This document shows positions 5,607 through 33,996 of a stretch of 35,570 nucleotides of DNA, in pieces (the stretch's first letter is position 1; each line of letters opens with the position of its first letter). The translations under genes and the position numbers were made by a program. The DNA is taken from contig JBILDU010000020.1 of assembly GCA_044352465.1 (NCBI GenBank), positions 1 to 35,570 on the forward strand, read 5' to 3'. Source of the stretch: Bdellovibrionota bacterium (GTDB lineage: Bacteria > Bdellovibrionota_C > UBA2361). The notes beneath the pieces were generated by a model. That model ran no database searches. It was not told the DNA's origin and saw nothing but the letters and a program-made list of their open reading frames with translations.

Positions 5607-7034
5607 GTGAGTGATCGAATCGCGGCTGTTTCTATCGTTATTTTCGTCGCCCTCCTCGGGGCAGTGCTCCGTATACTCGGAGGAGAGGGGGACCTGTGGT
5701 TCGACGAGGTGTGGACCCTCGAAACGCTCCAGCGGTTCGATGCACCCACTCAGATCCTCTCGCTCTATCGTCATCACACGAATCATCTACTCAACTCTTT
5801 CGTTCTCAATCTGCTCCCCCCGCTTCAACCTGATATAGTCTACCGTTTGCCCGCGATAGCTGCGGCTATCGCAGCGCTTCCGCTATTTTGGGCGTTCAAC
5901 CAACGTCAGCTCGGGAGCTATTCGCTCGGCGCATGCCTTTTGTTCGCCGTATCGGTCCCGGTTATCGCGTTTTCTACAGAGGCTCGGGGATTCAGTCTGC
6001 TGATCTTCGGGAGCCTCGTGGCTCTCTTGGTGCTCGATGACAATCTGCGTGATGAAGACTGGCGACTCATCGGTCTTTATTGGCTAGCGTGTATCGTCGC
6101 GTTTCTTGCCCATCCAAGCTTCGTGGTCTTTTTCTCGGCGCTGGTGGTGTGGTCGCTTTCCCTTGATTTCTCGGCTCGTTTCACCCGTACTATAGAGATT
6201 CTGGGAAAGTGCCATCTTGTCCCAGCGGCGGTCGGCGCGATCGTGTATCTGAGGTTCTATCAGTTCGTACCTCCGGAGAGTCTGGGAGCGCCCCCGCCCT
6301 TTCTTGATCTTTTCATCTCGGCGATGAGCCTTGCGGTGGGTGGTCCTGAGCTGATGGAGGCGGCGATCGGCGGGGTGTCGTTAGCGCGGCTCGTTGCAGG
6401 CTCGGTCGTCATACTCCTGGTAACCGAAACGTACCTTACCCTCCAGCGAGGTGGGCGCTATTGGATGTTGTACCTCGGTGGGGTCTTTGTGGCGCCATAC
6501 CTGTGGTATCTCTCGCCGCTCGTGCGTACCGACTCGGTCGCGTACTTTCTCCTGCCGACGATCGTGCTCTACCTCGCCCTTGGTTCTTTCGTAGCGCGGC
6601 TGATGAGTTTTAGTCTGCTCAGTCGCACAACGGCAGCGTTGCTGCTCGGCCTCGTCTGCTTCGGCAGTCTTTCGGGGCTCCATCTTGCAAGCGATAGCGG
6701 CCGCGGGAAGGTTCGACGAGCGTTTGCCTACATGGCCCAAAGCACGCAGGCCCCAATCGTTACGATCGCTGGAGATGACGATGTCGGCAACGAATTGTTT
6801 GTCGACTTTTATCTCCACCGGGTCGAGGTGGGGAAGCCGATCGTCTATCGCACCGCGGGTGAGCCCGGGCCCGCTGATGCGGAGTGGTACCTCGTTCGTC
6901 GGGATACCCTCGCAGCTGAACTCGATCACGAGATCGTGATGAGTGGCGGGCGACCATTCGAGCTTAAGAAGATTTTTCGACGGATGCTCCCTGCCGGGAC
7001 GAATCTGTACGTCTATCAACGGGCGGGGGAGTAG
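5607..7034 (+). CDS. GT-C fold integral membrane glycosyltransferase (PMT/ArnT-like)
   Basis: First loop carries DLWFDEVWT; also YRLP and TEARGFSL motifs, many TM helices and a soluble C-terminal tail. Confidence 0.75.
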   Translation: MSDRIAAVSIVIFVALLGAVLRILGGEGDLWFDEVWTLETLQRFDAPTQILSLYRHHTNHLLNSFVLNLLPPLQPDIVYRLPAIAAAIAALPLFWAFNQRQLGSYSLGACLLFAVSVPVIAFSTEARGFSLLIFGSLVALLVLDDNLRDEDWRLIGLYWLACIVAFLAHPSFVVFFSALVVWSLSLDFSARFTRTIEILGKCHLVPAAVGAIVYLRFYQFVPPESLGAPPPFLDLFISAMSLAVGGPELMEAAIGGVSLARLVAGSVVILLVTETYLTLQRGGRYWMLYLGGVFVAPYLWYLSPLVRTDSVAYFLLPTIVLYLALGSFVARLMSFSLLSRTTAALLLGLVCFGSLSGLHLASDSGRGKVRRAFAYMAQSTQAPIVTIAGDDDVGNELFVDFYLHRVEVGKPIVYRTAGEPGPADAEWYLVRRDTLAAELDHEIVMSGGRPFELKKIFRRMLPAGTNLYVYQRAGE

Positions 7035-7753
7035 CTTCCTGACGCATCCCCGGCTGTGCGAATGAATGCTTCGAGATTCACCCCCGCTCCGCGTCCGAGG
7101 ATATGGGCGAGGACCCGGAAGGTATCGTCGGCGAGAAGCTGTGCAGAGTCACGGGTAGTGAGCCGCTCGTGCTCAAAGACGACACGAATCACCTCCTTGT
7201 CTGCGTCGATAAGCACCGTGCGCTCAACCGTGGGGGTATAGCCAAAGAAGTTGGTGCGGCGGCTTCGGAAAAGCTCGAGCCCAAAGCGTATTCGATCGAT
7301 GACGAGGGGCCACATCCGACCGATCCTACGAACGTCGAGTACTTCGCTGAGAGCTCCGTGTCGCTCGATCGCAGTGCGGTGAGCGATGTGGTGGTCCCCA
7401 ACAAAGCTCTCGAACGCTGTGGTGATCGAGACATCGAAAGGTTCGCTCAGGCTCGCCGGTGTAATCTCCTCGACCTCTTCCTCGGGGGTTGGCGTTCGAC
7501 CTGCCACGAAAAGGATCTCTTCTCGCCGTGGGGTGAGATGCGACGGGGTCGCCACGTCGAGTATGACCGTTGGGTCGCGTCCTTTGCGGTCGGTGATGAT
7601 CTCCCCCTTGAGTGCTCCAGCGGGAACTAACTCGTTTACGAGTTCGGTGTAGAGGTCGCCGAGACCCCGCTTCGGCGAGGGGATGAGAAGCTCCAGGTGC
7701 GCGGTGAATCCCCACGGTATGAATGATCGCTTAAATAAGATCGAGCCGTGCAT
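7016..7753 (-). CDS. Hypothetical soluble protein (245 aa)
   Basis: Long ORF with protein-like composition converging on the glycosyltransferase; no motif recognised. Confidence 0.65.
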   Translation of the reverse strand: MHGSILFKRSFIPWGFTAHLELLIPSPKRGLGDLYTELVNELVPAGALKGEIITDRKGRDPTVILDVATPSHLTPRREEILFVAGRTPTPEEEVEEITPASLSEPFDVSITTAFESFVGDHHIAHRTAIERHGALSEVLDVRRIGRMWPLVIDRIRFGLELFRSRRTNFFGYTPTVERTVLIDADKEVIRVVFEHERLTTRDSAQLLADDTFRVLAHILGRGAGVNLEAFIRTAGDASGSYSPAR

Positions 7754-8563: not shown

Positions 8564-10033
8564 ATGTTGAAGCTCGTCGTTGTCGATCGGTCAGCCGAAT
8601 CGCGCCATCGTCTCGTCGAGCGGCTGCAGTGTCTTCTTGGCGGAGAGGTTCCAGACGCTCGATTCATTCCGCGGGTGAGCGTGATTCCGCGGGCACTGCA
8701 GGAGATAAAATTTCATGCGACCCCTGATATCTGCATTGTCGGCCGGGAAATTGCGGAGTCGGCGAGCGGAGAGTGCGCCGAGCTACGGCGAGCGCTACCC
8801 ACCACTCCTCTGATCGCTGAGCTTGGGTGCTCGGTGCCGCGTCTCGGCGATATCGAGCAGCTGGCCCGATACGGTATCGACGACGTACTACCCGCGGAGT
8901 TTCAAGCTACCGAACTGCTGCAGCGACTTGTCTTGCTGCTTCGTAAGCGAAACCTCGGGCGGTCGGGCCGGCTTGTCGTCGTCGAATCAGCCAAGGGTGG
9001 GTTGGGGGTGACCTCGGTTGCGGCTGGGCTTGCTGACGTCGCCACCGCTGCTGGAAAGAGCGCGGTGCTCGTCGATTTCGATACCGACACCCAAGATGCG
9101 GCGCGCTTTCTTGGGGCGCGCCCGTACCTGAATGAAATGCTTCAACAGATCTGTGAGTTGCGGCGGCCCCTTACTCAAGAGTTTGTTGAGCAGTGTCTCG
9201 TTTCGACTGGGGGTGCGGAAGGCGGTTTCAAGGTCGTGCCACCGATGCCCGGGGGGAGCTTCGTTGAGGGGGATGACGGCTCACTTGCCCGGACCCTTCT
9301 TGCGTTCCTTGAGATACTCGATCAGATGTTCGACGTCACGGTGATCGACGTCGGCAGCTCGCGTGGAGCGGTGCGTGAGCTTTTTCATCGGGTGGCCGAT
9401 GTCGTGGTGCTGGTAGTTTCAACCGACCCAGCGGCGCTGTATGCCACGGTTGAGTTCGCACGACGGCTCTCAGGCACCCTGGGCCCAACCGCTCGGCTTG
9501 TTGTCGCTGAGAATCGTACTGGGGGAGCTGGGCTCGCGAGTTCGTTTGTTCGCAGCGAGATCGCCCGCGCGGCTCGATTGGGTGAGGCCAAGCAGGCAGG
9601 TGTCGTTATTCCGTATTGTGCCCGCGCGGCGCTTTGGCCCGGCTCGGGCGAAACGTTTTTTCGCCACGGCGGGCGGGGTTTGAGTCGCGCCTTGGAGACC
9701 CTATGGAACGAGGTCGTCAGCGGCGCTCAACCGGTGGATCGGCCCGTCTCGATGGGCGAATTGAGTGGGGCCCGTGTCGTTGAGAGGGTGCGCAGTTTCG
9801 GAACGTTTGCTCTTCGAGCGATTCGCGCAGTGCGGTTCGGGGTGCTCTTCGGTCGTTCCGCTCCTACCCCAGTCGGTGCTGATTCCGCGGAACCCCATGC
9901 GGTCACGGGGCCATGCGAGATTCGTCAACCGAAGCTTCTCGAGTTGCCGGAGCCGCACAGGGCGCTCCCACTCGACCCGCGATCTCTTGTTTCCGGTCTA
10001 CAACAACGTCTAGCAACTGTTACGGAGGGCTAA
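8564..10033 (+). CDS. CpaE/TadZ-like protein: pseudo-receiver plus MinD/ParA-type domain
   Basis: N-terminal receiver-like fold (MLKLVVVD, PDICIVG), deviant Walker A SAKGGLGVTS, VLVDFD, DVTVIDVG. First gene of the Tad-like operon, with GGAG upstream. Confidence 0.8.
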   Translation: MLKLVVVDRSAESRHRLVERLQCLLGGEVPDARFIPRVSVIPRALQEIKFHATPDICIVGREIAESASGECAELRRALPTTPLIAELGCSVPRLGDIEQLARYGIDDVLPAEFQATELLQRLVLLLRKRNLGRSGRLVVVESAKGGLGVTSVAAGLADVATAAGKSAVLVDFDTDTQDAARFLGARPYLNEMLQQICELRRPLTQEFVEQCLVSTGGAEGGFKVVPPMPGGSFVEGDDGSLARTLLAFLEILDQMFDVTVIDVGSSRGAVRELFHRVADVVVLVVSTDPAALYATVEFARRLSGTLGPTARLVVAENRTGGAGLASSFVRSEIARAARLGEAKQAGVVIPYCARAALWPGSGETFFRHGGRGLSRALETLWNEVVSGAQPVDRPVSMGELSGARVVERVRSFGTFALRAIRAVRFGVLFGRSAPTPVGADSAEPHAVTGPCEIRQPKLLELPEPHRALPLDPRSLVSGLQQRLATVTEG

Positions 10034-10234
10034 ATGAAAAAGAGAATAGTTCGAGTGATTCGCCTTAGTGGAGGCGGGGAGCGAGGCTATACCCTGCTTG
10101 AGTATGTCGCCGGAGCTGCGATTATCGGTGGGATCGTTTTCACCGCTCTGACGAGCTTTGGAAACGATATGGCGGGATTCTTGGGAAATCTCGGCTCGTG
10201 GACTCAGGCCCGTGGCGCCGAGTTAGCTCAGTAG
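10034..10234 (+). CDS. flp: Flp-type (Tad) prepilin
   Basis: 66 aa; basic leader ending ERG, then YTLLEY (Glu+5/Tyr+6 Flp motif) and a hydrophobic helix. Confidence 0.88.
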   Translation: MKKRIVRVIRLSGGGERGYTLLEYVAGAAIIGGIVFTALTSFGNDMAGFLGNLGSWTQARGAELAQ

Positions 10235-10244
10235 GTCGAGCGCC

Positions 10245-11156
10245 ATGGCGAAGCGAACGATGGAGCGGCCCCACGCGAAGCGGGGAAGGCACACGCTCGT
10301 TGGATTAGTACTCCTTGGCACGGCGATCGTCGGTGCGGCGTTCATCCTCCGGGAGGGACGGTACCCGACGGTCGCCCAGCCGCCTCCTCCGGTTGTGGCT
10401 CAATTCGATGTGGTGCCGGTTCCGGTCCCTGTCGAACCGGTCGCGGGGGGGACGCGGATAAAGCAGATAAAATTTAAAAATGTGATGTATCCGCGTCACC
10501 AACTACCGGAAGGAGCTCTCCTCGATATCGCCCCGGTTCGTGAGGGGATCGTGGCGGCACCACTTCCCGCGAACCTCCCCCTCTTTCGGGCCAATATCAC
10601 CCTCACGGTGCCAGGGAATCCGGTGACGGAGCGTATTCCGCCGGGGATGCGCGCGATGACCCTGAAGGTTGATGCGACGGCGGCGGTTGAGGGATGGGCC
10701 GGTTCAGGCACGATCGTTGATGTTCTCTTAATCGAGAAAGATCGGACGACGGTCGTGGCCGAGAAGGTGAAAATTCTCTCGGCTGAGCGGTCGGTGTCTC
10801 CGGTGGAGGGCGGCGGTACCCCGCACGTTCCGAGCACCGTCACCCTACTGGTAACTCAAGAGCAATGTCTCGCCATTAATACCGCGATCCCGCGCGGACG
10901 AATCGCTTTTGCTCTCCGTAGTGGGCGTGATGAAGCGACGTGGGGAGATCCGATTTACACCGCGGAGAGACTCAAAGGTGGGGATGCCCTGAGCGAAAGC
11001 ACCCCCGATACGATCTCAGGCTATGCCATCGTCCACGGATCGTCGGGCGGTAACTCGTTCGCGCTTGCTAACGGTCGTTGGGTGCGCGCCGAGGCTGTAC
11101 CGGAGGGCTTTCTTGTCGCGCGGGGTGTTGATTCGCGCATACCTATGAAACGGTAG
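10245..11156 (+). CDS. cpaB: Flp pilus assembly protein CpaB/RcpC
   Basis: N-terminal TM and SAF-like segment, IPPGMRAMTLKVD, VEGWAGSGTIVDVLL, VKILSA, TVTLLVT. Confidence 0.9.
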   Translation: MAKRTMERPHAKRGRHTLVGLVLLGTAIVGAAFILREGRYPTVAQPPPPVVAQFDVVPVPVPVEPVAGGTRIKQIKFKNVMYPRHQLPEGALLDIAPVREGIVAAPLPANLPLFRANITLTVPGNPVTERIPPGMRAMTLKVDATAAVEGWAGSGTIVDVLLIEKDRTTVVAEKVKILSAERSVSPVEGGGTPHVPSTVTLLVTQEQCLAINTAIPRGRIAFALRSGRDEATWGDPIYTAERLKGGDALSESTPDTISGYAIVHGSSGGNSFALANGRWVRAEAVPEGFLVARGVDSRIPMKR

Positions 11157-11168
11157 AGGAACAGTCGG

Positions 11169-12527
11169 ATGCAACCAGCAACCACCTTGCCCCGTGTTTT
11201 CGAGCCCACGGATCCCCCCGCGGTCATCGCGACGCGTACCCCCCGGTACGGCTCTACGGGGTCGACCCCGGCTATCGTGCATATACTCGAATCGGTGCGG
11301 CGTCAGCGGGGTGACGCGGGACCGATGCAAGTCGAGGCCTCGCTCGGTGAGGTCGAGCTTGATGCGACGATTCGGGAGGTCGCTCAATCGTTCGGTTTTG
11401 AGCTCTCGCCTTTTGAGTATGACGAGATCAAGGCTCATCTGGAACGGGATCAAAAGCTGTTCGGGGTGCTGCAGGTGCTCGTTGATACGCCGACCGTCTC
11501 GGATATCATCGTCACAAATTTTTCCCAGATCGCGGTCCAGCAGGGACGGCGGACTGTCGGCACCGATCTTTCGTTCACCTCTCTCGAGGCTTACGAAGCC
11601 TTTGTGGAGCGACTCCTTCACCGTGCGGGCACGAGTTATTCGACGAAGAGGCCGATCGCTGATGGAATGATCGGAGATTTTGCCCGTATTCACGCGGTGC
11701 ATCGGTCTCTGTGTGAGTCGGGTCCTTATCTGACGGTGCGGCTTAACCGATTCTCCTCGGTAGCGCTTGAGGACCTCGAGCGGGCGGGGTTTGCGCCCCG
11801 CCCGGTGCTTGATTATCTGCGTACCCTCGTTGGCTGGGGGCGGACCGTTCTTGTCGTTGGCGAGGTCGGCACGGGGAAGACGACGCTCACGCGGGCACTG
11901 GCGGCGAGTATTCCGCCCTCTGAGTCGATCCTTGTCATCGAAGACACGCCTGAAATTCGACTGAAGCATCCCCATGTGCGCTATGTCTCAACCCGCGAAG
12001 CCAATGCGGAGGGAGCCGGCCGGGTATCTCCGACCGAATGCATCCGGGCCGGGATGCGTATGGCGATGAACCGCATCATCTTCGGGGAGATTCGCGATGC
12101 CGAGGCGGCGGAAGCCTTTGTTGATGTGTGTGCCTCGGGGCATCCCGGTCTGTCGACCCTCCACGCGCGGAGCGCTCTCGAAGCTATCGCTCGGATGGAG
12201 CTTTTTCTAGGGCGGGCTCAACGTGGTGCTGATCGTGCGGTCCTCACCGAGCAGATCGTCACCGCTGTCCAGGTGGTGGCTTTCGTTGATGTTTGCCGTG
12301 ATACCGGGCAGCGTCGCATCAAAGAGGTTCGTGAGATCGGTCCGGTCGCGGATGGAGTTATTCGTCATCGGGAGATGTTTCGTTATGCCGTTGAGGGTGG
12401 CGTGCCGGTGTGGCGCGTGCAGGGCCGTTTAAGCGCTCATCGCGATCTCCTTGAGGGAGGTAGTAATCCCGTGGTGTTAAGCGCCTTGCCGCCGCGCCTC
12501 ACCGTCTTGAGGGGAGATTCGGCATGA
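11169..12527 (+). CDS. cpaF: Tad pilus ATPase CpaF/TadA
   Basis: Walker A GEVGTGKTT, Asp box IEDTPE, Walker B IIFGEIR, His box GHPGLSTLHA. Confidence 0.92.
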   Translation: MQPATTLPRVFEPTDPPAVIATRTPRYGSTGSTPAIVHILESVRRQRGDAGPMQVEASLGEVELDATIREVAQSFGFELSPFEYDEIKAHLERDQKLFGVLQVLVDTPTVSDIIVTNFSQIAVQQGRRTVGTDLSFTSLEAYEAFVERLLHRAGTSYSTKRPIADGMIGDFARIHAVHRSLCESGPYLTVRLNRFSSVALEDLERAGFAPRPVLDYLRTLVGWGRTVLVVGEVGTGKTTLTRALAASIPPSESILVIEDTPEIRLKHPHVRYVSTREANAEGAGRVSPTECIRAGMRMAMNRIIFGEIRDAEAAEAFVDVCASGHPGLSTLHARSALEAIARMELFLGRAQRGADRAVLTEQIVTAVQVVAFVDVCRDTGQRRIKEVREIGPVADGVIRHREMFRYAVEGGVPVWRVQGRLSAHRDLLEGGSNPVVLSALPPRLTVLRGDSA

Positions 12528-13309
12528 TCGGATATCGAGCGCGATTGCAGGCGCAAGGGGAATTTTTGCTGAGTCGGCCACGTGCGCCGAAGAGAGGGAG
12601 AAATCGTGTCTCTCGACCTTGGGTAGGCACAGCTCTTGTATGGAGTGGTGTGGCCGCAGCGCTATCGCTGGGTGCTCTTTATGGTCCACTCAAAGCGGCT
12701 TTGGCGCTTTTCCTCGGTGTTGGAATCGGCGCGATGCTGCGAGGGCGGCGTAAATTCGCCCAGATGGAGGCGTTTGAGCGGGACTACCCGGCATTACTGG
12801 TTTCACTGGCATCTTCGGTTCGGGCGGGGCTCGACCCGTTAGTAGCGCTGATGTCCGCGCGAACGTTGTTCCCACCTGAGGGATCCGTTCGCCGAGAGCT
12901 CGACGTTTTCGCCCAAGCGATCGAGGCTGGCGCGAGAGAAGAGGACGCGCTCAGACGTTTCGGTGCGACGGTTGCACATCCCGATGTCGTCCTTCTTCAA
13001 AACGCTTTTCTCCTCGCTCGGCGGGAGGGAGCTTCGCTCGGCGAGTGCTTACACCGCTTAGCGCGGGTGACCCGGCAGCGCCAATCTTTTCGCCGCAAGA
13101 TTCGCGGAGCGGTAGCGATGCAGCGGATGTCGGCGATCGGTATCGCGGGTTGCGCTGTGGTGATCGGGGTCTTCCAATCGATCTCAAATCCTCAAGGCAT
13201 CGCCAATGCTGTGGCCGATACGCGGGGTGTGATGGCGCTGTCGTTTGGTGGTGCCCTCGTCGCGGGAGGGCTTATCTGGATGATCTATCTCGTTCGCGCA
13301 CGGATATAG
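12524..13309 (+). CDS. tadB: TadB-like inner-membrane platform protein (T2SS F domain)
   Basis: LASSVRAG, REGASLGECLHRLARVTRQR, two C-terminal TMs; ATGA overlap with cpaF. Confidence 0.82.
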   Translation: MIGYRARLQAQGEFLLSRPRAPKRGRNRVSRPWVGTALVWSGVAAALSLGALYGPLKAALALFLGVGIGAMLRGRRKFAQMEAFERDYPALLVSLASSVRAGLDPLVALMSARTLFPPEGSVRRELDVFAQAIEAGAREEDALRRFGATVAHPDVVLLQNAFLLARREGASLGECLHRLARVTRQRQSFRRKIRGAVAMQRMSAIGIAGCAVVIGVFQSISNPQGIANAVADTRGVMALSFGGALVAGGLIWMIYLVRARI

Positions 13310-13312
13310 GGT

Positions 13313-15511
13313 ATGGATGCGTTTTTAGGGCTCCTCGGGTGTGTGGTCTTGGTTTTGTGCGGTAGCGCCTTCCTTCTGGGGACGCAGCGCCGGACCCCGG
13401 TTGATGTGGTGATCGATCTAGCGGAAGAGGGTCCTCAGGGGGGAGTTGGCCCAACGGCAAGGAAAAGTTCCGCTAAAGCACAGGCTCCCATCGCTACCGG
13501 GACGCAGGCCGCTTTACTCGGAGGGAGCGGTGGGGCGCTCGTGGGCTGGTTGGCTGGCTTAGCACCCGGCCAGGTCGCGGTATTCGCTGCAGCGGGGATT
13601 GCGGCGGGCTATCTCCTTATCCAGGCACTTTTCCGACGGAGTAAAGAGCGCCTCCGGCAAAACTATATCTTTCACCTTCCCCTGGTGATGGAGAGCGTCG
13701 TCATGGCGGTTGAAGCCGGTGCGGATGTGTTGGGTGCGATCGGACGGGTCGTGAAGCTCGAAGATGACTCGATGTCTCGAGTGTCCATCGATCCGGTGAC
13801 GTCACTCCTCGGTGTTGCGCTCGAGCGGGTGGAGCAAGGCGCCGGTCTCGAGGAAACCTTACGCGAGCTCGGCGCTGAGTGCGAGGTCACGGCGGTACGC
13901 CACGCTTTTCTCCATCTCGCGCTGGCCCACCGTGAGGGGGGAGAGTTGGTCCAACCGCTTCGCGAGCTCGGCAACTCCACCCAGGTCTTTTTCCAAGAGA
14001 CCGTGGAGGAGGAGATCGCCAAGCTCCCGGTTCGGGCAACAGCACCGCTCCTTTGCATGTTTACGGGGCTCATCATCTGTTTTGTTACCGTGCCGCTTCT
14101 TCAGGTCAGCTCAATGACCAAGCGGGCGTTGCCGGAAAAGGCACTTCCGCCCCTTTCAGGGGAGCGAGGTTCGATGACGTTGTTTGTCCTTTTTTTTGTT
14201 TTTCCGATTATCTACCTCCTCGCCACGCTCTCGCTCGATCTCCGGGCGGCAACCATCGAGACCTCCGCGCGCCAACGTATTCTGGATGAGGCTGTTCTTG
14301 CCGGTGTCCGGGGTATGCCCCGGCCCGAGGCAGCGCGAGATTTTACCCGTCAGTACCTCAATCGTTTTGGTTTCACCGCGGAGGCTGCGGTGAGAGCCGA
14401 TGCTTCGACGGTGAGCGTCACGGTAGAGGGGGTCACGAAGTTGTCGTTCCCGAGCCTGCTCGGAGTCGATGCTGGTGTACCGTATACCTTGCATGCGCGT
14501 GCGCGTGCCCGACCAGTCGACGCTGTCATCGCTCTCGATCTGGGCGCGTATCTCGCTCCATCGGAGAGTGGCTTTACTGCCTGGGGTGCCGAGTCGGAGT
14601 GGGGCGCAGCGGAGTATTTCGTTCGTATAGCCGATCGATTCGTTCCCCCCGCCGACCCGCGCCTGTCGACTGCACGATGTTTTAATTTCACCGTGTCAGC
14701 GCTCAAACGCGCTGCTATCGGGGCGCACGATTACCTCGGTGCCTTTAGCGATAGCCGGATCGGGCTAGGGCTTTTCCCCGGGGACGGGCTGCCGTTTCAG
14801 TTTGTGCGATCGTTCGCCGCGACTGGGGATACGGTGGCGGATCTCCCAACGTATGCAACCCGCACCGTCACTGCCGACGACTGCGCCGCCGCAGCGGTGG
14901 AGGAGCGCTGGTTCGAGCAATACCGTTTCCCGGCAAACCCGTATCGAAACGGGTCGCCGCCTGAGGAGGGGCTGGGATGGGGCGAGGCCGGTGCGACGAC
15001 CCCTCGAACGGTGGGAGCCGCTGTGTGGATGAGTCCGGTACGAGAAGTCAGCCCGGTGTCAAACGGAATAGGGGATTTCGGAGCCGTTCTCGAAGGTGTC
15101 CTGAGCGCACTTCTCGGCGCTCCCGCGGCTGATGGGCGGGGTGGCTTTAGTCGGAATCCCCGCCGTCTGGGATTGATTTTAATGGGGGATCTCCCCCACG
15201 TGGGCGGGTTTCGTTTCCCGAGCGAGGAGGTTTCCGAACGTATCGATTCGATCCTTGAAACGTTTCGACCGATGATTGTGGAACATCAACCAAGAGTCGT
15301 GATCTACGTGGTGATTCTACCACCACCCGGCCGTGAGCTCGACTCGTTCGAGCGACAGGCGCTCGATCAATATTTCACTTCGCGCGAGGTGCGAGCAGCG
15401 GAGTTGCTCCTCGATATCGAACCGATCTTTCCAAGCGATCCAGAGGCCCTTCGAGATTCGATTCTTCCCGCGATATTGATCGACCGTAGCGGCGGAGGGA
15501 TCGCCCGGTGA
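13313..15511 (+). CDS. TadC-like platform protein fused in frame to a TadG-like pseudopilin with a degenerate vWA domain
   Basis: Residues ~1-267 are TadC-like (MAVEAG, EGGELVQPLREL, EEEIAKLPVRATAPL plus a TM). ERG|SMTLFVLFFVFPIIYLLATLSLD, RILDEAVLAG and PVDAVIALD follow. No stop codon in 14101-14180. Confidence 0.78.
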   Translation: MDAFLGLLGCVVLVLCGSAFLLGTQRRTPVDVVIDLAEEGPQGGVGPTARKSSAKAQAPIATGTQAALLGGSGGALVGWLAGLAPGQVAVFAAAGIAAGYLLIQALFRRSKERLRQNYIFHLPLVMESVVMAVEAGADVLGAIGRVVKLEDDSMSRVSIDPVTSLLGVALERVEQGAGLEETLRELGAECEVTAVRHAFLHLALAHREGGELVQPLRELGNSTQVFFQETVEEEIAKLPVRATAPLLCMFTGLIICFVTVPLLQVSSMTKRALPEKALPPLSGERGSMTLFVLFFVFPIIYLLATLSLDLRAATIETSARQRILDEAVLAGVRGMPRPEAARDFTRQYLNRFGFTAEAAVRADASTVSVTVEGVTKLSFPSLLGVDAGVPYTLHARARARPVDAVIALDLGAYLAPSESGFTAWGAESEWGAAEYFVRIADRFVPPADPRLSTARCFNFTVSALKRAAIGAHDYLGAFSDSRIGLGLFPGDGLPFQFVRSFAATGDTVADLPTYATRTVTADDCAAAAVEERWFEQYRFPANPYRNGSPPEEGLGWGEAGATTPRTVGAAVWMSPVREVSPVSNGIGDFGAVLEGVLSALLGAPAADGRGGFSRNPRRLGLILMGDLPHVGGFRFPSEEVSERIDSILETFRPMIVEHQPRVVIYVVILPPPGRELDSFERQALDQYFTSREVRAAELLLDIEPIFPSDPEALRDSILPAILIDRSGGGIAR

Positions 15512-16227
15512 GAAACAGAGGAGGAATCGGTGTGCGAATTCGGGACGTACGAGGGTCCTGCGGGGATAATGGCGTAGCTCTTCTCGAGCTGGCACTTCTC
15601 AGCGTGGTTGTACTCCCAGTCCTGCTCATGGGTCTCGCGCTCGTTCGGTATATGGAGTTAGGACGCGAGCTTTCGATTGCGGTGGAATACGCCCTTCGTG
15701 CGGAAGAGGGGGTGCCGTGGCGGATAACTCCTAATTCTCGCGGGGAGAGCGTGATTGAGGTTGATCGGGAGGCGATCGATCGAGCCGTTGAGGACTCGGT
15801 GCGGCGAGTGGAGCAAGTCATCGTTCGAGATTCGTTGGGTGTCAACTCGGGGCGATACCGGGTCGAGTCAGCGATGGTCCTGGTGGGGATAGACCGGGTG
15901 ACCGGTCGACCTGAGATCGAGGGAGCTGAGATCCGCTCTCGAGCCGTGGGTGGGTTGCCGGTGAAAAGCCGTGATCTGACCGCGACCGCCCCCTCCGCGC
16001 TTGTGGCAGCGCTCGCCCGTTCGTCCCCCGCGGAGGGCCAGAGCGCTTTGTCTGTTCGGGATAACCCTGGCGCGGCGGGATACTTCGGTCTTGTGCCGGT
16101 TGTTGTCGTGCGCGCCTTTCGATCGATCGGATCTGAGGAGATGGGCTTTTTCCTTGAATCAATGGGTCTCCCCTCTTACGTTTTTGCGGCTGAAGTCGGC
16201 CTCGTTCGAGTGGAGGCGGGGGTATGA
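15508..16227 (+). CDS. TadE-like pseudopilin
   Basis: Basic leader ending DNG, then VALLELALLSVVVLPVLLMG (Glu at +5). GTGA overlap with the preceding gene. Confidence 0.78.
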   Translation: MRNRGGIGVRIRDVRGSCGDNGVALLELALLSVVVLPVLLMGLALVRYMELGRELSIAVEYALRAEEGVPWRITPNSRGESVIEVDREAIDRAVEDSVRRVEQVIVRDSLGVNSGRYRVESAMVLVGIDRVTGRPEIEGAEIRSRAVGGLPVKSRDLTATAPSALVAALARSSPAEGQSALSVRDNPGAAGYFGLVPVVVVRAFRSIGSEEMGFFLESMGLPSYVFAAEVGLVRVEAGV

Positions 16228-17492
16228 AGTTACGTCGGTGGTGGCAACGTCTTTGTCGGAGTTTCGCCGTTGGTCGGGGACTGGGCTTTAGGGGCGGAGT
16301 TTCTCTCGATGACTTTTTACTGGGTTACGTGACGCGAACGGAGTACGCCCATATCGTCGCCACGACCCCCGATCGTCGCATGATTATCGATGCGGTGGCG
16401 ACGTCTCGTGGAATCGAGTCTCTCGACATAGTAAGAAAATGGGGGGCTCAGCGGGGATGCCGCTCTTTGGAGCGCCCCGCGTGCGCTGATTTCACGGTCT
16501 TACCGGCGGATGTATCGCCCGAGCTTTTGGCGCGAAGTGGCGCAACGGTGGTGACAAGCGGCGCTCTTATCGAGGCGTTAGTCTGCGTCGATCCAGATAC
16601 GATTGAGCACCTCCGGGTAGCGCTGGGGGATGTTGAGATCGTTGTCGCGCCGTGGCGTGAGATTGAGCGACAGCTCGGTGAATCAACGGGGGCTCTCGCA
16701 GAGATAAAAGCTGCCGAACAGCGGGAGTCGATCGAACGGTTGCGCGAAACGACCGCGGCGGTCTTGGGGATCGTTGTCCAAGAAATAGTCGATCGTGGTG
16801 CCTCCGCTGTTTATCTCGATCTGACGATGGAGGACCCAACCTATACCCTTGGCGAGAGCAGCCAGAGCGGAGTGCAGGGGGTCTTACACGCGATGCTACG
16901 CCCGACACTTGAGGAGACCTTGGGCTGCGACACCGCTGAGATCGAGCTTCCCTCCGGTGTTCGTATCGCCGCGACGATAGAGCGAGATGCCGCGAGGAAA
17001 TGCTTCACCTTGCGGTGGGCTCACGCGAGACCGGCGGCGCCGACTCCCCCGGCGGTTTCGTCGGGCCCTCCCACGCCCCACCCGAAAGGGATAGCGTCGC
17101 CGCGGTTACGGAAAAATGTCTTTGTCATCGAAGATAATCCAAGTTTTCGGGCGATTCTGACCGCCTATATCGAGCGGCAGGGCTTCGGTGTGACCCCTTT
17201 CTCCGCTGCCATAGATGCTTGGAGCGCCCTTCAAGAGGGGGTCGATCTTGATGTCATCGTCTGTGATCTCCATATGGTCGAGATGAGTGGGTACGATTTT
17301 ATCCGGCGCCTCCGCGCTACTCGGGTAGGCCGAAACGTTCCGGTGATTGCGTTAAGCTCGGCCGATGATGTTGAGACGGAGCTGCAGATGCTTCGCGCCG
17401 GGGTTGCGGCGTTCATCTCTAAGGGAGCGGATCCGCGGATTCTCGGAGCTCATATCGAACGACTGTGCCTTGGCCTCGAAGGGGAGAGCTGA
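16224..17492 (+). CDS. Response regulator: PilB/GspE N-terminal-like domains plus C-terminal receiver, no ATPase
   Basis: Receiver motifs VIEDN, IVCDLHM, LSS, SKG. N-terminal segments LVCVDP...IVVAPWREIERQL and IVVQEIVDRGASAVYLD resemble the PilB/GspE N1 and N2 domains. No Walker A. Confidence 0.75.
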   Translation: MKLRRWWQRLCRSFAVGRGLGFRGGVSLDDFLLGYVTRTEYAHIVATTPDRRMIIDAVATSRGIESLDIVRKWGAQRGCRSLERPACADFTVLPADVSPELLARSGATVVTSGALIEALVCVDPDTIEHLRVALGDVEIVVAPWREIERQLGESTGALAEIKAAEQRESIERLRETTAAVLGIVVQEIVDRGASAVYLDLTMEDPTYTLGESSQSGVQGVLHAMLRPTLEETLGCDTAEIELPSGVRIAATIERDAARKCFTLRWAHARPAAPTPPAVSSGPPTPHPKGIASPRLRKNVFVIEDNPSFRAILTAYIERQGFGVTPFSAAIDAWSALQEGVDLDVIVCDLHMVEMSGYDFIRRLRATRVGRNVPVIALSSADDVETELQMLRAGVAAFISKGADPRILGAHIERLCLGLEGES

Positions 17493-17497
17493 GACTC

Positions 17498-19375
17498 ATG
17501 TCGATCCGCGGAGCCGTCGTCAGCTGTGTTGGTGCGGGATGTCTCGGTGTCGCGGGATATGAGGTTGCAGGTCTAGGGACGTTGGTGCTCCTATTCCTCC
17601 TCTGCGCGAGTCGATTTGATCGGGGGGTGCGTCGTCTCGAGGGGGTTCTGGATATTCCCATGGCGCAGCTATCGTCTGCTCGGGCGAATGGATGGGGTGT
17701 CCGAATGGGACTCATCGAGTCGGCGCTCCGGTACCTCAAGACGAAGAGTGAGGTGATATCGGTGCCCTCTCTTTATCGACGCGAAGCCGGACGGCGCGAT
17801 ACCCCGGATTCCCACTCTGAGGCGCAATTGTGGCCGCGGGCGCTGAGCGAAATCGGTGCCCTCAGCGGCGTGGCCGGAGCCGCGCTCATAACCTCCGCGG
17901 CTGGAGGTCGCCCCATCGTTCACGGTGCCCTAGGAGAGTCGAGTCGATTTCGTGGGGTGGTTGAGCGGCTTTACGGTGGTTATTTCTTCCATGGAGAGCC
18001 TCCCGAGGTGGGCGGCACCGACCGGGTGGTGCGTTGCTCCGTTTTCGGTGATTTCGCTCAGCTGGGTTATCGCTATTCGCTCGCCTATCCGTTTGGCTTT
18101 ACTCGAAATGGGGAGGTCTGGCGAGGACTCGTGTGGCTCGGGTTCGCCGCTCCTTGTCCGCCGCGAGAGAAGCATGTCGTCGTGGTGGAGAGCCTCGTCC
18201 GCCGATTGGAGGAGGACCTCCGGCTGCTTGAGGCAGTGCGCGGCGTCTCGGCGCGAGCGCGGCTCGCTGAGACCTCAAGCGCCCGTAAGTCAGAATTTTT
18301 AACCCAGGTGTCCCACGATATTCGGTCGCCGCTCCATAATATCCAAGCTGTTCTAGGGTGTCTTAAAGAGCAACTCTCGGACCCCCGTGCTCACGAACTT
18401 ATCGATACGGCGGCGCGAAACTGCGACGGTGTGGGCGAACTTGTCGAAGATGTTCTTGATTTCACCCGCTTCAAGGAGGGGCAGTTGCCGGTGCGGGCCG
18501 ATGAAGTCGGAGTTGTCGCGGTGGTTGAGGAGTTGGTGCGGCGTTTTACCGTGGCCGCTGCGGCAAAGGGGCTTGAGTTAGTTCGGAGTTACCCGAACAG
18601 CGAGCTCTTCGTGCGGGTCGATCGCCGCCACCTCAGACGGATCGTCTCCAACCTCGTCGGGAATGCGATTAAGTACACCGAGCGCGGCGCCGTGAGGATT
18701 GAGATAGCGCCTACCCATTCCCATGGCCTTATCAGAGTGCACGACACCGGCATCGGTATGTCTGAAGCTGAAGTCGCGGCGCTTTTTACACCGTTCAGCC
18801 GGTGTGGAGATAGGAGTATCGAAGGGATCGGGCTCGGCCTCTTTGTGACACGCGCGCTGGTTGAGCTCAACGGAGGCAGTGTCACCGTCTCTTCCACCCC
18901 TCATGTGGGCTCCGTTTTTTCCGTCTGCCTGCCTATTTCGGCGCCCCAAGCCGATATCTGCCCACATCCGACGGCGATCATACATACCCCCACGGACAAT
19001 TCGAGCGTTCGTCAGTTGGATACCCGCCCGACCGTACTGATCGTCGATGATGATCGCGATTCGTGTACAAGCCTGGCGCGTGCATTCTCGCGCTACCCAG
19101 TAGAAACGACGATAGCGACCTCGATTCCCGAGGCGATAAGCCTCTTTAACTTTTCCGCTCCCGATGTAGTCATCACCGATTTGGGGATGCCGTTAGGGGG
19201 CGGAGAACGTCTCCTCGAATACGTTCACTCGTGTGGGCGTGCGACCCAGCTGTACTGTCTGACGGGTGGAAGCGCCCCTCCCGCAGCGACCCGATTAAGA
19301 ATTAACGGTGTATTTCAAAAGCCGGTCGATGTCAGTGAGCTCTGGCGTTCAATCCTCGTTACTGCGGCGCCATAG
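17498..19375 (+). CDS. Membrane-anchored hybrid sensor histidine kinase
   Basis: H box SHDIRSPL, N box NLVGNAIKYT, G1 HDTGIGM, F box LFTPF, G2 GIGLGL; C-terminal receiver (IVDDD, TDLGMP, QKP). Likely ATG at 17498. Confidence 0.92.
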   Translation: MSIRGAVVSCVGAGCLGVAGYEVAGLGTLVLLFLLCASRFDRGVRRLEGVLDIPMAQLSSARANGWGVRMGLIESALRYLKTKSEVISVPSLYRREAGRRDTPDSHSEAQLWPRALSEIGALSGVAGAALITSAAGGRPIVHGALGESSRFRGVVERLYGGYFFHGEPPEVGGTDRVVRCSVFGDFAQLGYRYSLAYPFGFTRNGEVWRGLVWLGFAAPCPPREKHVVVVESLVRRLEEDLRLLEAVRGVSARARLAETSSARKSEFLTQVSHDIRSPLHNIQAVLGCLKEQLSDPRAHELIDTAARNCDGVGELVEDVLDFTRFKEGQLPVRADEVGVVAVVEELVRRFTVAAAAKGLELVRSYPNSELFVRVDRRHLRRIVSNLVGNAIKYTERGAVRIEIAPTHSHGLIRVHDTGIGMSEAEVAALFTPFSRCGDRSIEGIGLGLFVTRALVELNGGSVTVSSTPHVGSVFSVCLPISAPQADICPHPTAIIHTPTDNSSVRQLDTRPTVLIVDDDRDSCTSLARAFSRYPVETTIATSIPEAISLFNFSAPDVVITDLGMPLGGGERLLEYVHSCGRATQLYCLTGGSAPPAATRLRINGVFQKPVDVSELWRSILVTAAP

Positions 19376-19401: not shown

Positions 19402-20268
19402 TCACTCGAGCTCCGGAGCGACCTCTTGTAAAAACTGCCGATTTAAGGGGTTTGCAAGATTCGTAAATACGCTCGTGTCTCCAGCGTCGCACGAATCGAG
19501 AGTTCCCGAGGAGACGAGCCCGACAAGCTGAAGACGCTGAGTCGCCGCTCCGAAGGTAAACGCCGGTCCGCCCGAATCCCCCCGGCACGTATTGGCCGTA
19601 GCGCCGTTATAAAATGCGTCGATGTACAGATCGGAGACCGCGGAGACGTTCATCGTTCCTGCGGAGAGTGGTGCTGTCAGAGGGGGCTCGCTCTCTTCTA
19701 CGGTGGTGCGGCCATACCCAAAGATATACACGGTCTCTCCCAGCGCTGGTGTCGGGCCCAAAGCCACGGGAACGACGGAGATCTCGAGCGGCGGCTCTAC
19801 GATACCGATGGCGAGATCGTGTTCGAAACGATTATCGATAAATCGTGCGTTTGGATGGGAGGTGACGCTGACGATATCGCTCGATGAGCCACCGGCGGTG
19901 ACCGTCGCACGAAAAACAAATTCATCAAAGCAGTGCGCAGCGGTCAGTATCTTGTTTGGTGAGAGCACGACCGCGCTGCAGGTAAGGGCGTTGTCTTCCT
20001 CGTCGAACAGTTTGAGGCGAGCAACCGTGGGCTCAAGTGGGGGACAGGGCGCACCGTTAATAATCTTTTGTAGCCCCCTTTCCTCCGTGCAGAGCTCGCT
20101 GAGTGAGGGCGGGGGGCTCTCGGCTCCCCCACCACACCCAGCGAGTATCGGAGCGAGGGTCATAAAAAGAAACGACAACACTGCCGTTTTTTCACCCAAG
20201 AGCTTTCGATGCATTTGGGGCCTATCAGGGTTCGTAACTTGATCGGCCATTCCTTTCTTCTTGCGCAT
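19402..20268 (-). CDS. Trypsin-like (S1) serine protease, probable lipoprotein
   Basis: LAGC lipobox, IING activation site, LTAAHC, HDLAI, CRGDSGGP. True start may be the ATG at 20214. Confidence 0.9.
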   Translation of the reverse strand: MRKKKGMADQVTNPDRPQMHRKLLGEKTAVLSFLFMTLAPILAGCGGGAESPPPSLSELCTEERGLQKIINGAPCPPLEPTVARLKLFDEEDNALTCSAVVLSPNKILTAAHCFDEFVFRATVTAGGSSSDIVSVTSHPNARFIDNRFEHDLAIGIVEPPLEISVVPVALGPTPALGETVYIFGYGRTTVEESEPPLTAPLSAGTMNVSAVSDLYIDAFYNGATANTCRGDSGGPAFTFGAATQRLQLVGLVSSGTLDSCDAGDTSVFTNLANPLNRQFLQEVAPELE

Positions 20269-20382
20269 ATCAATCGGTCGAGAGACAATCAGAGTCTCGC
20301 ATAATAAAGGGTGTTTGAGGTTTCCCCTACGGTGATTTTTGGGGACGAACGCAGAAAAATCGTTAAAGGAGCTGGTGTCGAC

Positions 20383-20880
20383 ATGAAAATGTTTTTAAAA
20401 GGTGTTCTTTTTGTTGTGGCGCTGAGCGGTTTTGTAGGGGTGGCTGAAGCCGATCTCGCGAGTGTGTGTCCGACGATTAAATCGATCACGAACCGAAGCG
20501 CGCTGGGGGTGACCGTTCAGTATAAGAATAATCAGGTGCAGCGCACCGGTGGGGTGGGTACGCCGATTACCTTTTTTAAACGTAATCCTACCATCATTGA
20601 GACTCGAGGGCGGCGCACTTTTAAGAACTCACGAGCCACGATCTACGACAAAGATGGTAAGGCGATTTGCACCAGCGCTCCCCGTCAGGGATGTTCGGTA
20701 ACTCGGGGGGAGTGTCTCGGTCGGTATAAATTTGATTGTGCGACTTCGAGTGTCCGCCGGGCGACGAGCAACGGTGGCGCTTTTATCAAGGTCAGCTCAA
20801 ATCTTTGTGTCGCCGTGCCGAACGCAGGGAAGTGTTACAACGTGAAGGTCCGCGACCTGTGTGACGGGCGCCAGTTGTAG
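20383..20880 (+). CDS. Secreted, basic, 8-cysteine protein of unknown function
   Basis: AAGGAG upstream of ATG 20383; signal peptide MKMFLKGVLFVVALSGFVGVAEA; 8 Cys in the mature part; followed by a terminator. Confidence 0.8.
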   Translation: MKMFLKGVLFVVALSGFVGVAEADLASVCPTIKSITNRSALGVTVQYKNNQVQRTGGVGTPITFFKRNPTIIETRGRRTFKNSRATIYDKDGKAICTSAPRQGCSVTRGECLGRYKFDCATSSVRRATSNGGAFIKVSSNLCVAVPNAGKCYNVKVRDLCDGRQL

Positions 20881-21788: not shown

Positions 21789-22760
21789 TCAGTTTGTGGC
21801 TTTTTTCGAACGTCGCTCGGTGTGGAGCGAAGCTAAAACGCCTATCCCCAAGAGGCCACCGATCACCACCAGCGATAGCTCTGGGGAGATATGGATATGT
21901 CCGGTGAGGGTCATCTTTAGCCCTACGAAGAAAAGCACCGCGACGAGGCTCGCTTTCAGGTATTTCACCCGGTCCATAAAAGCTGCCAGAGCGAAGTAGA
22001 GCGAACGGAGATTTAAGATCGCGAAGATATTCGAGGTAAAGACGATGAAGGGGTCGCTGGTGATAGCGAATACGGCCGGGATTGAGTCCACCGCGAAGAG
22101 TACGTCGGTGCTTTCGATGATAAGTAACACGAGAAAAAGCGGGGTGATCGCCCGCCGGCCATCGATTCGGGTGAAGAACTTCTCCCCATCAAGTTGGCTG
22201 CTCACGGGATAAAGTCGCTTCGCGAGACGAAAGAGGATGTTGTGTTCCGGGTTCAGATCCATCTCTTTGGCGAGCATGATCTTCATTGCGGCGTAAATCA
22301 GTAGCGCCCCGAATACATAGTGAATCCATGAAACATGGCGAATGAGCGCGACACCGAGCGCGATCATCACTCCCCGCATTATCAGCGCTCCTAAAATTCC
22401 CCAGAACAGAACGCGGTGTTGGAATTGGAGCGGCACTTTAAAATACGAAAAGATGAGCGCGATGACGAAGACGTTATCGAGGCTTAAACTTTGCTCGATA
22501 AGCCATCCGGTAAAAAACTGAAGCGCAGCCTGTTGTCCGGTAAGGGGGTTGTTTGGATCGGTTCCGAGTCCGAAGAGTTGGACGGAGTACATCCACCAGA
22601 GGAGTGCGTTAAAAAGAAGCGCCAGGACCACGCATACCCCGGTCCATCGCAGCGCTTCGCTCGCGGAGATTACTCGGGGTCCCTTATGAAAAGCTCCAAG
22701 ATCGAGGGCGAGCATGAAGAGCACGAAGGCGATAAAACCGATCCAGAGGAAAGCAATCAT
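21789..22760 (-). CDS. TerC family membrane protein, Alx-like
   Basis: LALDLG, EQSLSLDNVFV, QHRVLFWGILGALIMR, DVLFAVDSIPA, FTSNIFAILNLRSLYF. Confidence 0.92.
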   Translation of the reverse strand: MIAFLWIGFIAFVLFMLALDLGAFHKGPRVISASEALRWTGVCVVLALLFNALLWWMYSVQLFGLGTDPNNPLTGQQAALQFFTGWLIEQSLSLDNVFVIALIFSYFKVPLQFQHRVLFWGILGALIMRGVMIALGVALIRHVSWIHYVFGALLIYAAMKIMLAKEMDLNPEHNILFRLAKRLYPVSSQLDGEKFFTRIDGRRAITPLFLVLLIIESTDVLFAVDSIPAVFAITSDPFIVFTSNIFAILNLRSLYFALAAFMDRVKYLKASLVAVLFFVGLKMTLTGHIHISPELSLVVIGGLLGIGVLASLHTERRSKKATN

Positions 22761-27397: not shown

Positions 27398-27772
27398 TCA
27401 GGAGAGGAAGATCCGTATGCCGTAGTCGAGTTGCTTCGCTGTGAACGGTTTCGTGATGTAGTAATCTGCGCCGCTTTGATAGCCTTGCAGGATCTCGCTA
27501 TCTTGATCCTTCGCGGTCACCATAATGATAGGGATATCTTTGAACTCAGGAAGCGCCTTAAGCGCTTTCATGACCTCGTAGCCGTTCATCTCAGGCATCA
27601 TAATATCGAGCAAGGCCATGTCGATCTTCTGGCCTTTGATTTTTTCGAGCGCCTCTTTGCCTGAAGCAAATCCGGTGTAGCTGAAGCCCAACGCATCGAG
27701 CATCGCGCACAGGGCGTTCCGGCTATCGTTGTCGTCTTCGACGACGAGGATCTTCTTTTTGGTTGCAGTCAT
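27398..27772 (-). CDS. Single-domain response regulator
   Basis: VVEDD, LLDIMMP, MVTA, YITKPF. Confidence 0.92.
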   Translation of the reverse strand: MTATKKKILVVEDDNDSRNALCAMLDALGFSYTGFASGKEALEKIKGQKIDMALLDIMMPEMNGYEVMKALKALPEFKDIPIIMVTAKDQDSEILQGYQSGADYYITKPFTAKQLDYGIRIFLS

Positions 27773-33568: not shown

Positions 33569-33996
33569 CGTAACCTCCGCGAATTTGAATTTCAAAAAAC
33601 CTTGCGTGTGCTGAGGAACACCTCTGCGCCTCATTAGGGTACGGTTTTCATTCGGCCAAGCCAAATTCGCTTCGCCTCAAAATTTCCCAAGCGTGGTCGC
33701 GATCGGTTTATCTCTCTCACGGCGTTAAGAGTTGGCGATGCGGGTCTTCTCCCTTTGGCGGAGCGGTGGGGGGCGAGCTTTGAAAAAGTACTGCTTATCC
33801 ATTGTGGTGGCTCTCCCCGGTTCACAGGAGCGGCGCCGCTTGTAACGGTCTCACGTCCGTACCGGCCCTCTCACAACCCGTCTAGCTGTTTCAACAAAGC
33901 TTGTATAGGCTAGGACCACCCTCGCATAGAGGTGAGAGGACCGTTTTAGAGGCGGTCGAAATAAGTCTTATTTTTTTGGTTCGGTCCCTACTACCC

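Follow-up and report, generated by a model that had tools for sequence, protein, structure and literature searches.

A class-wide Tad pilus locus with a built-in two-component pair and a regulator resembling a pilus motor without its ATPase domain

The canonical Tad/Cpa pili of Caulobacter and Aggregatibacter are built from Flp, CpaB, CpaE/TadZ, a single CpaF, TadB, TadC and TadE/G. A single ATPase drives both extension and retraction of Tad pili; of interest here is how that motor is switched, or coordinated with other pilus systems of the same cell. In Pseudomonas aeruginosa, a histidine kinase and a response regulator (PprA-PprB) are encoded inside the flp-rcp-tad locus, where PprB is reported as a NarL/LuxR DNA-binding regulator of tad transcription and the locus as five transcription units (PMC3510237). 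In Caulobacter, the membrane kinase PleC is tied to the Tad machine together with PodJ and CpaE and serves as a model for pilin sensing (PMC13234629, PMC12637624), with PleD, cyclic di-GMP (c-di-GMP) and the cell cycle as its output (PMC13234629). We analysed a Tad locus of nine genes in a stretch of 35,570 nucleotides (the window), which is the whole of contig JBILDU010000020.1 from a Bdellovibrionota bacterium (assembly GCA_044352465.1; 3.13 Mb, 94.9% complete). The lineage, which we take to be class UBA2361, is uncultured and related to bacterial predators. The last two genes of the locus encode a receiver protein (the regulator) and a histidine kinase. In Caulobacter, pleC is encoded away from the cpa genes.

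All of the canonical parts, shared likewise with the plasmid loci L327-L329, are found in the window, including a Tad core of CpaF-type ATPase, TadB and TadC, short Flp, TadZ/CpaE and RcpC/CpaB. Conversely, RcpA/CpaC, CpaD, TadD and TadV are absent from the locus, in line with an initial annotation of this DNA that had named rcpA, tadD and tadV as usual parts of canonical tad loci, and the kinase and regulator are appended. The cpaE gene comes first here but stands just before cpaF in L327-L329. The ATPase falls, together with that of a second Tad locus of these genomes (the sister locus), in a clade separate from canonical CpaFs (support 0.996 versus 0.982 for the references). Nine open reading frames (ORFs), all on the + strand, make up the locus at 8564-19375; a slash marks the prepilin cleavage site.

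8564-10033, + strand: CpaE/TadZ-like docking ATPase with a pseudo-receiver and a MinD-type domain (Walker A KGGxGxT), assigned from weak family matches and conserved residues
10034-10234, + strand: Flp major prepilin of 66 residues, prepilin motif G/YTLLEY conserved in 58-59 of 59 relatives
10245-11156, + strand: CpaB/RcpC periplasmic alignment subunit, over the cut-offs of TIGR03177 and PF16976
11169-12527, + strand: CpaF/TadA assembly ATPase (T2SSE) with intact Walker A (GEVGTGKT) and Walker B (IIFGEIR), without an FHA domain
12524-13309, + strand: TadB inner-membrane platform, over the cut-off of PF00482 (T2SSF)
13313-15511, + strand: in-frame fusion of TadC (about residues 1-270) with a large, TadG-like minor pilin, cleavage site ERG/SMTLF kept
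15508-16227, + strand: TadE-like minor prepilin, G/xxxLE motif in 48 of 49 relatives, one predicted membrane helix
16224-17492, + strand: regulator, with a PilB/GspE N1D (MshEN/GSPII-like), an N2D-like part, a linker and a receiver at residues 299-411, from profile matches
17498-19375 (GTG start at 17465 possible), + strand: membrane-anchored hybrid histidine kinase with one or two hydrophobic helices, a GAF-like domain, DHp, CA and a receiver (HisKA, HATPase_c and receiver matches)

These coordinates agree with the initial annotation, which had called nine co-oriented genes joined by 4-nucleotide overlaps or gaps of 0-12 nucleotides. From the cpaE-like gene to the regulator, successive junctions measure 0, 10, 12, -4, 3, -4 and -4 nucleotides; the regulator/kinase junction is instead an overlap of 28 nucleotides with the GTG start at 17465 or a gap of 5 nucleotides with the ATG at 17498. 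Promoter and terminator scans gave counts at the level of shuffled sequence (3 versus 3.1 and 16 versus 13.5) and were uninformative.

We searched 124 genomes, the same set being covered at class and at phylum level, and obtained a CpaF match at E 1e-60 or better in 121 of them, mostly two per genome. From about 120 loci around the closer CpaF, we picked 83 by their position on the contig and so as to spread over families, two of them being second copies within a genome; together with the window they make 84 loci in 34 families. The kinase gene was found behind the Tad genes in 73 of these. Contig ends truncate nine more, and it is truly absent from two (L082, L094), which gives 73 of 75 informative loci with the kinase; by family the count is 31 of 34. 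The best non-Tad neighbours, a NuoB-like gene and a divergent upstream ORF, recur in 12 and 9 families, respectively; gene order within the locus is conserved across the class while flanking genes turn over, which is more than chance would give. The regulator precedes the kinase in 68 loci, and the kinase stands alone in five. In 20 of these 68, tadG-tadE are absent and the regulator lies directly behind tadC, the tight junctions having re-formed after the loss. With start codons chosen mechanically, the junction upstream of the regulator is -4 nucleotides in 34 of 68 loci and at most 24 in 65, and that between regulator and kinase is -4 in 28 and at most 12 in 63.

A profile of the regulator N-terminus, built from 52 proteins, matches 106 of the 124 genomes, nearly always once. 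In 91 of the 106 the match shares contig and strand with cpaF and is found 1.7-7.2 kb downstream of it; among the other 15, a tad gene lies directly upstream across a contig break in 12, two are at a contig edge and one is genome G026, discussed below. A metagenome search with the CpaF alignment returned 55 loci. At least 3 kb of downstream sequence is present in 16, and 14 of these show the regulator and/or the kinase; one of the remaining two ends at the contig edge and the other (L267) carries other genes. These loci are not independent of the genome set because several appear to be duplicates of genome loci. Co-conservation of the pair with this Tad clade had been proposed as a check in the initial annotation, with an unlinked pair in related genomes named beforehand as the refuting result, and the neighbourhoods came out in favour of linkage. 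We read the locus as that of a Tad (type IVc) pilus, present throughout the class and maintained by vertical descent, with a two-component pair built in.

Variants of the locus were also observed. A third paralogue (L224:981-11556) has a kinase without a regulator and divergent tadE/tadG genes. Three reduced loci (L076, L077, L311) have no regulator and carry an ORF of 122-128 residues between tadC and a short kinase gene. In the metagenome locus L267, a CpaF of this clade runs in frame for at least 759 residues, and long unrelated ORFs come after it in place of tadB-tadC.

The receiver is the only Pfam match in the regulator, and neither T2SSE nor a DNA-binding domain was found in it by Pfam. 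Its Asp348 and Lys400 are each present in 64 of the 66 alignment rows with the column, and the fold of the N-terminal 270 residues is confidently predicted. A PilB-like N-terminus had been read from the sequence at the outset, and profile searches support it, matching the N-terminal regions of PilF (E 1.5e-9), PilB (2.5e-5) and MshE (0.0047); against the window's genome, the profile otherwise picks up GspE and PilB ATPases alone. Pfam MshEN gives a weak match in 4 of 52 regulators. The RxRxDG loop was found in 0 of 52, and the c-di-GMP motif of MshEN, RLGxx(L/V/I)(L/V/I)xxG, in 0 of 65, although imperfect motifs may still bind (PMC5013675, which gives the definition). The regulator family is small: a search of 1.84 billion representatives gave 488 matches, and none of the best 150 is longer than 521 residues.

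Proteins with an MshEN-receiver combination are known as a class, in which Bd2402 is mentioned (PMC5013675). The class UBA2361 likewise encodes MshEN-T2SSE-receiver ATPases of 663-758 residues (L254-L258, and Atlas clusters). Five of them score 97-112 bits against the regulator receiver profile, compared with at most 87.5 bits for the other receivers of the window's genome; the receiver tree groups the regulators with these ATPases (support 0.981); and the N-terminal profile aligns collinearly with one of these ATPases along 185 columns, starting at residue 15 and reaching into N2D (probability 79.5, E 1.5e-5). For these three reasons the regulator would be an MshEN-N2D-ATPase-receiver motor minus its ATPase domain and both nucleotide-binding motifs. 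It has the domain order and receiver ancestry in common with the full-length ATPases and keeps the N2D-like part, but the ATPase domain is deleted and the c-di-GMP and RxRxDG motifs are gone. The regulator is also fixed in a Tad operon although its domains belong to the PilB/GspE branch. It would illustrate clearly how a motor can become a signalling adaptor once its engine is deleted. Because it has no DNA-binding domain and has lost the ATPase domain, its output is probably protein contact on a pilus motor and not transcription.

The two-component residues of the pair are complete, with a phospho-His and N and G boxes in the kinase and Asp, Thr/Ser and Lys in the receiver. In the kinase alignment the His, an Asp and both N-box Asn are invariant (73 of 73) and the G boxes almost invariant, and all 63 sequences with the column keep the Asp of the C-terminal receiver. 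One or two hydrophobic N-terminal helices occur in 49 of 56 kinases and leave no room for a sizeable periplasmic sensor. The structural model (predicted local distance difference test 84.9) places a GAF-like domain ahead of the DHp helix. This call is a modest one, drawn from the topology of the model and from phytochrome alignments that run through the region; a profile of the region against the PDB gave nothing significant (best E 0.05 to a designed protein, NreA E 1.8), and fold searches with the whole kinase and regulator models were filled by receiver and kinase domains. The initial annotation had spoken of a phosphorelay. No HPt was found in the locus, with five matches elsewhere in the window's genome, and since 10 of 73 kinases leave the receiver column unfilled, a multi-step relay is not a constant feature; the term may claim too much. 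CpaE is an unlikely kinase substrate because a Gly (G60, in 71 of 74) appears, in our own alignment, to occupy the phospho-Asp position of receivers. We also considered descent of the kinase from the one beside an ATPase-receiver gene (L255), which was not supported, as that kinase ranks below several ordinary kinases.

We then asked which pore could serve this machine. Pfam Secretin matches number at most two in 121 of the 124 genomes and three in the other three. The CpaC N-domain is over its cut-off in 0 of 124, with a positive Caulobacter control. The two secretins of the window's genome are encoded in a pilMNOPQ cluster (PilQ) and a gspCDEF cluster (GspD); CpaC queries recovered only these long secretins there, and likewise long secretins alone in five genomes of few contigs. 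A Tad secretin is thus not recognisable with the queries used, which a very divergent pore could escape. CpaD and TadV queries (two for TadV) gave nothing in the window's genome, and TadD queries gave general TPR proteins alone. One A24 prepilin peptidase is encoded in this genome, outside the locus. Peptidases can be shared between systems, and secretins are described as rarely exchanged among type IV filament systems and as lost in the Tad systems of monoderms (PMC6668835). The single-contig genome G062 retains one secretin, beside pilM, together with both Tad loci and the pair; it has no GspE-level match, and its PilB was matched in two frames. The idea that the regulator is specific to type II secretion is weakened by this genome.

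The second CpaF of these genomes belongs to the sister locus, which has the same core gene order and also lacks a secretin. In 19 of the 21 sister loci with visible downstream sequence, an FlhA/SctV-family gene comes after tadC, and the flanks of the locus usually carry PP2C, FHA, Ser/Thr kinase and YscD-like genes. No regulator-kinase pair was found at sister loci. The two CpaF clades are sisters (FastTree support 0.984 in a first tree and 0.996 in a second, from which the degenerate ATPase of contig C134 was left out), with 13 reference CpaFs apart (0.982). The initial annotation had left room for an ordinary described Tad clade, and the ATPase lies outside the clade of those references, in trees that hold no KilF, Bdellovibrio TadA or Caulobacter CpaF sequences.

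In Myxococcus, the Kil ATPase is described as fused to an N-terminal FHA domain, with a short KilC secretin and FHA-rich accessory genes (PMC8460266), and Kil as partnered by a non-flagellar, needle-less type III export set (T3SS*) without a secretin (PMC12075869). Kil and the present system have in common a Tad-type core, secretin-less type III sets and a related, possibly predatory lineage (PMC8460266, PMC12075869). Unlike Kil, however, the nine-gene locus shows no FHA-ATPase fusion, no FHA genes and no KilC-like secretin, and it forms one cluster instead of two. The sister locus comes closer and would, by the features in those two sources, be the Kil/T3SS* analogue. In the window's genome it lies on contig C47 (L034:941-12039; also L229-L246, L259, L264, L265), where it is joined in addition to a kinase-like/HEAT gene, so that Tad and needle-less type III parts stand in one operon; in Myxococcus they are separate clusters (PMC8460266, PMC12075869). 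FHIPEP and FliP are each encoded at three loci of the same genome, in which there is one flagellar P-ring gene and no third secretin. Beside the flagellar set lie two non-flagellar type III export sets (L261:4929-10422, L262:502-4473, L263:2347-9058), which contain extra FliP, FlhB, YscJ/FliF, FHA/YscD and SctV.

On these grounds our preferred reading, which we judge slightly better than even, is a Tad pilus locus with a built-in two-component switch whose output is protein contact and not transcription. This suggests a hitherto undescribed mode of switching a pilus, by protein contact rather than gene expression. The kinase would phosphorylate Asp348 of the neighbouring regulator directly, its own receiver serving as a sink or tuner; among the three steps that we propose, this is the one we hold most confidently. 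The kinase may read the state of the pilus in the membrane, as returned Flp pilin or as the conformation of the platform, in a manner resembling PleC (likened here by role, not by homology), or alternatively a small molecule through its GAF-like domain. In the step of which we are least confident, the N1D-N2D of the phosphorylated regulator would occupy the docking site of a pilus motor and turn the motor on or off. The likely role is the sensing of surface or cell contact and the hand-over between pilus systems. As to the target, a type IVa machine (PilM/PilB) is a tentative choice, well short of an even chance, and the Tad motor in cis is doubtful. Two points make us rank the type IVa machine higher: the N1D of PilB/GspE homologues docks on the stator (PMC11656802), and in G062 PilQ is the sole secretin left.

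Several observations weigh against this reading. Genomes of one class are not independent observations, and the linkage counts therefore describe one old, kept linkage and not many origins. In G026 the pair lies on a separate contig and the Tad locus has other neighbours, L082 and L094 have neither regulator nor kinase, and the kinase occurs without the regulator in 5 of 73 loci as well as in L224. N1D is missing in 5 of 70 regulators and the receiver in 4 (one a split gene), the N-terminus is weakly conserved (19% mean column identity), and we found no likeness between it and CpaF. The receiver tree places one unrelated receiver inside the regulator clade and one regulator outside it. Finally, as the sister locus has neither a secretin nor the pair, the regulator is not needed for working without a secretin.

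The kinase-only loci also fit an alternative in which the true partner of the pilus is the kinase, whose signal goes outward, possibly through an HPt, to transcription factors or c-di-GMP enzymes encoded elsewhere, while the regulator is an accessory phosphate sink or a localisation factor. We consider this unlikely but to be reckoned with: the kinase is kept in 73 loci against 70 for the regulator, 9 of 70 regulators have lost one half or the other, HPt matches are available elsewhere in the genome, and PleC-PleD provides a precedent of the same type (PMC13234629). A mere sink, however, would have no need of N1D-N2D and receiver together, and both are kept in 61 of 70 regulators; nor is the kinase's own receiver column filled in every case. 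That the pair is simply co-transcribed with the pilus genes and regulates something unrelated is far less probable still. The two loci without the pair and the one displaced pair prove that it can be separated, and a single ancestral insertion can persist by inheritance. Against such hitch-hiking, the pair outlasts the minor pilin genes and every flanking gene, tight junctions re-form after tadG-tadE loss, and the regulator's output domain is itself part of a pilus motor.

The missing pore raises the prospect, quite improbable in our view, that no external pilus is made and that the locus encodes a pseudopilus-like sensor inside the envelope, pushing on the wall or outer membrane, with the kinase reporting load. 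The Pfam census, the CpaC N-domain search and the CpaC queries gave no CpaC-type secretin, CpaD and TadV have no match in the window's genome, the tip pilins are missing in the 20 loci without tadG-tadE, and the nearest Atlas clusters of the ATPase come mostly from Actinomycetota, which are monoderms (a lead). CpaB, though, which lines up with the Caulobacter secretin (PMC12637624), occurs wherever the upstream part of a locus can be seen, and PilQ would be available for sharing. Such sharing is central to a chimeric pilus, which we regard as speculative and rather unlikely, in which the poreless Tad motor and Flp filament exit through PilQ and the phospho-gated, ATPase-less PilB remnant hands the PilM-PilQ conduit from the type IVa to the Tad motor on contact sensed by the kinase. 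In that case a single pore would serve both sister Tad machines, His-Asp signalling switching one of them and Ser/Thr-FHA signalling, together with a needle-less type III export gate, the other. A Kil-like contact-killing machine, with the pair gating attack on prey, seems more remote than the internal sensor. It draws on the two secretin-less non-flagellar type III sets, the partner combination of Kil in Myxococcus (PMC12075869), and on a protein of about 950 residues with a pilin-like start that some orders add between tadC and tadG. The Kil hallmarks (FHA, Ser/Thr kinase and SctV genes) are nevertheless at the sister locus, and predation by any member was not found in the literature examined. 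The predatory role suggested initially for the nine-gene locus is therefore not borne out.

The initial annotation had also put the locus forward as the window's best candidate for an undescribed system. PprAB is a precedent for a two-component system encoded within a tad locus, and acts on transcription (PMC3510237); from its genes, the present locus would be a variant of the Tad system. Unlike PprB, its regulator has no helix-turn-helix and carries the N-terminal domains of a pilus motor. In the literature, mostly outside subscription journals, we found no paper that describes the locus, or any Tad operon with a PilB-type regulator lacking its ATPase domain. A Kil survey across Bdellovibrionota of GTDB R220 may list these loci in its Table S3; the same source takes class UBA2361 out of Bdellovibrionota in GTDB R226 (PMC13200544). 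Further background is found in PMC12428579, PMC6581867 and PMC10469934. With a kinase and a motor-derived regulator whose working parts are soluble, the operon is a compact candidate for the question of motor switching. In addition, two Tad machines apparently run without a Tad secretin, and either pore sharing or an envelope-internal pilus would be unusual.

The remaining genes were assigned as follows. MinD/Ssd matches of the CpaE-like protein (Pfam CbiA/AAA_31, TIGR03815) are weak and all under cut-off, and G145, G146 and G148 are kept in 74 of 74 relatives. CpaB scores 106 bits against TIGR03177 (cut-off 71). CpaF matches Pfam T2SSE at E 9e-32 and Caulobacter CpaF structures at E 3.5e-39; against the actinobacterial Ssd-associated families TIGR03819 and TIGR03815 the scores are 203 of 373 and 28 of 154 bits, under the cut-offs, this comparison still giving CpaF its best NCBIfam match. 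TadC's T2SSF match is under the Pfam cut-off, and local profiles recovered the paralogous TadB/TadC pair. Flp and the TadE-like protein of the window have no Pfam match and were identified through the prepilin motif G/xxxxE conserved among relatives (flp G18 58 of 59, E23 59 of 59 and Y24 58 of 59; tadE G22 and E27 48 of 49 each). The Flp paralogue at the sister locus matches Pfam Flp_Fap, and separate TadG proteins from two relatives are over the cut-off of Pfam Tad.

TadC and TadG are fused only in the window and in L031, both of one genus; they are split, commonly with a 4-nucleotide overlap, in 48 other listed loci. Presence of the fusion in a second species (L031) led us to reject a sequencing error; with two examined loci of one genus, the fusion is not a feature of the system. 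Identity of the fused copies is 51% in the TadG part and 53% in TadC, a similar level of conservation. Read as a single chain, the TadG helix following the last helix of TadC could be inverted, and an internal start at a Met 19 residues before the cleavage site would avoid this. In other orders (L084:9018-11885, L086, L087, L091, L114, L115), the protein between tadC and tadG has 880-970 residues and a pilin-like start, with no Pfam match in the three that were scanned, and is a candidate large tip adhesin.

Further Tad-related genes lie elsewhere. On contig C55 of the window's genome (L124:2756-7803, - strand), orphan TadE, Tad and CpaB genes accompany a Ser/Thr kinase with HEAT repeats and could supply alternative pilus tips. 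An orphan cpaB adjoins a flagellin gene (L125:8452-10465, - strand). On contig C134 of the same genome as the window (L260:9510-12675), a degenerate CpaF-like protein (499 residues, no Pfam match, P-loop GAPGSGRT), a receiver and a CpaE-like gene stand in a row before gyrase/topoisomerase IV genes, forming a pilin-less third CpaF-CpaE module with its own receiver. Two stand-alone, N-terminally extended CpaFs inside the clade (L223:5790-7385 and L225:2768-4555; 532 and 596 residues) have no Tad neighbours.

Within the window, the divergent ORF upstream of cpaE (7016-7753, - strand) encodes 245 residues without a Pfam match and is the direct upstream neighbour in the 9 families counted above. 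Converging on the kinase gene is a trypsin-family protease with a lipoprotein-like N-terminus (19402-20268, - strand), followed by a small secreted-looking protein (20311-20880, + strand); both are shared only with the same-genus locus L031. Two TerC-family membrane proteins are encoded at 21789-22760 (- strand) and 33901-34716 (+ strand), and a single-domain receiver (27398-27772, - strand) lies beside an SLT transglycosylase and a thymidylate kinase.

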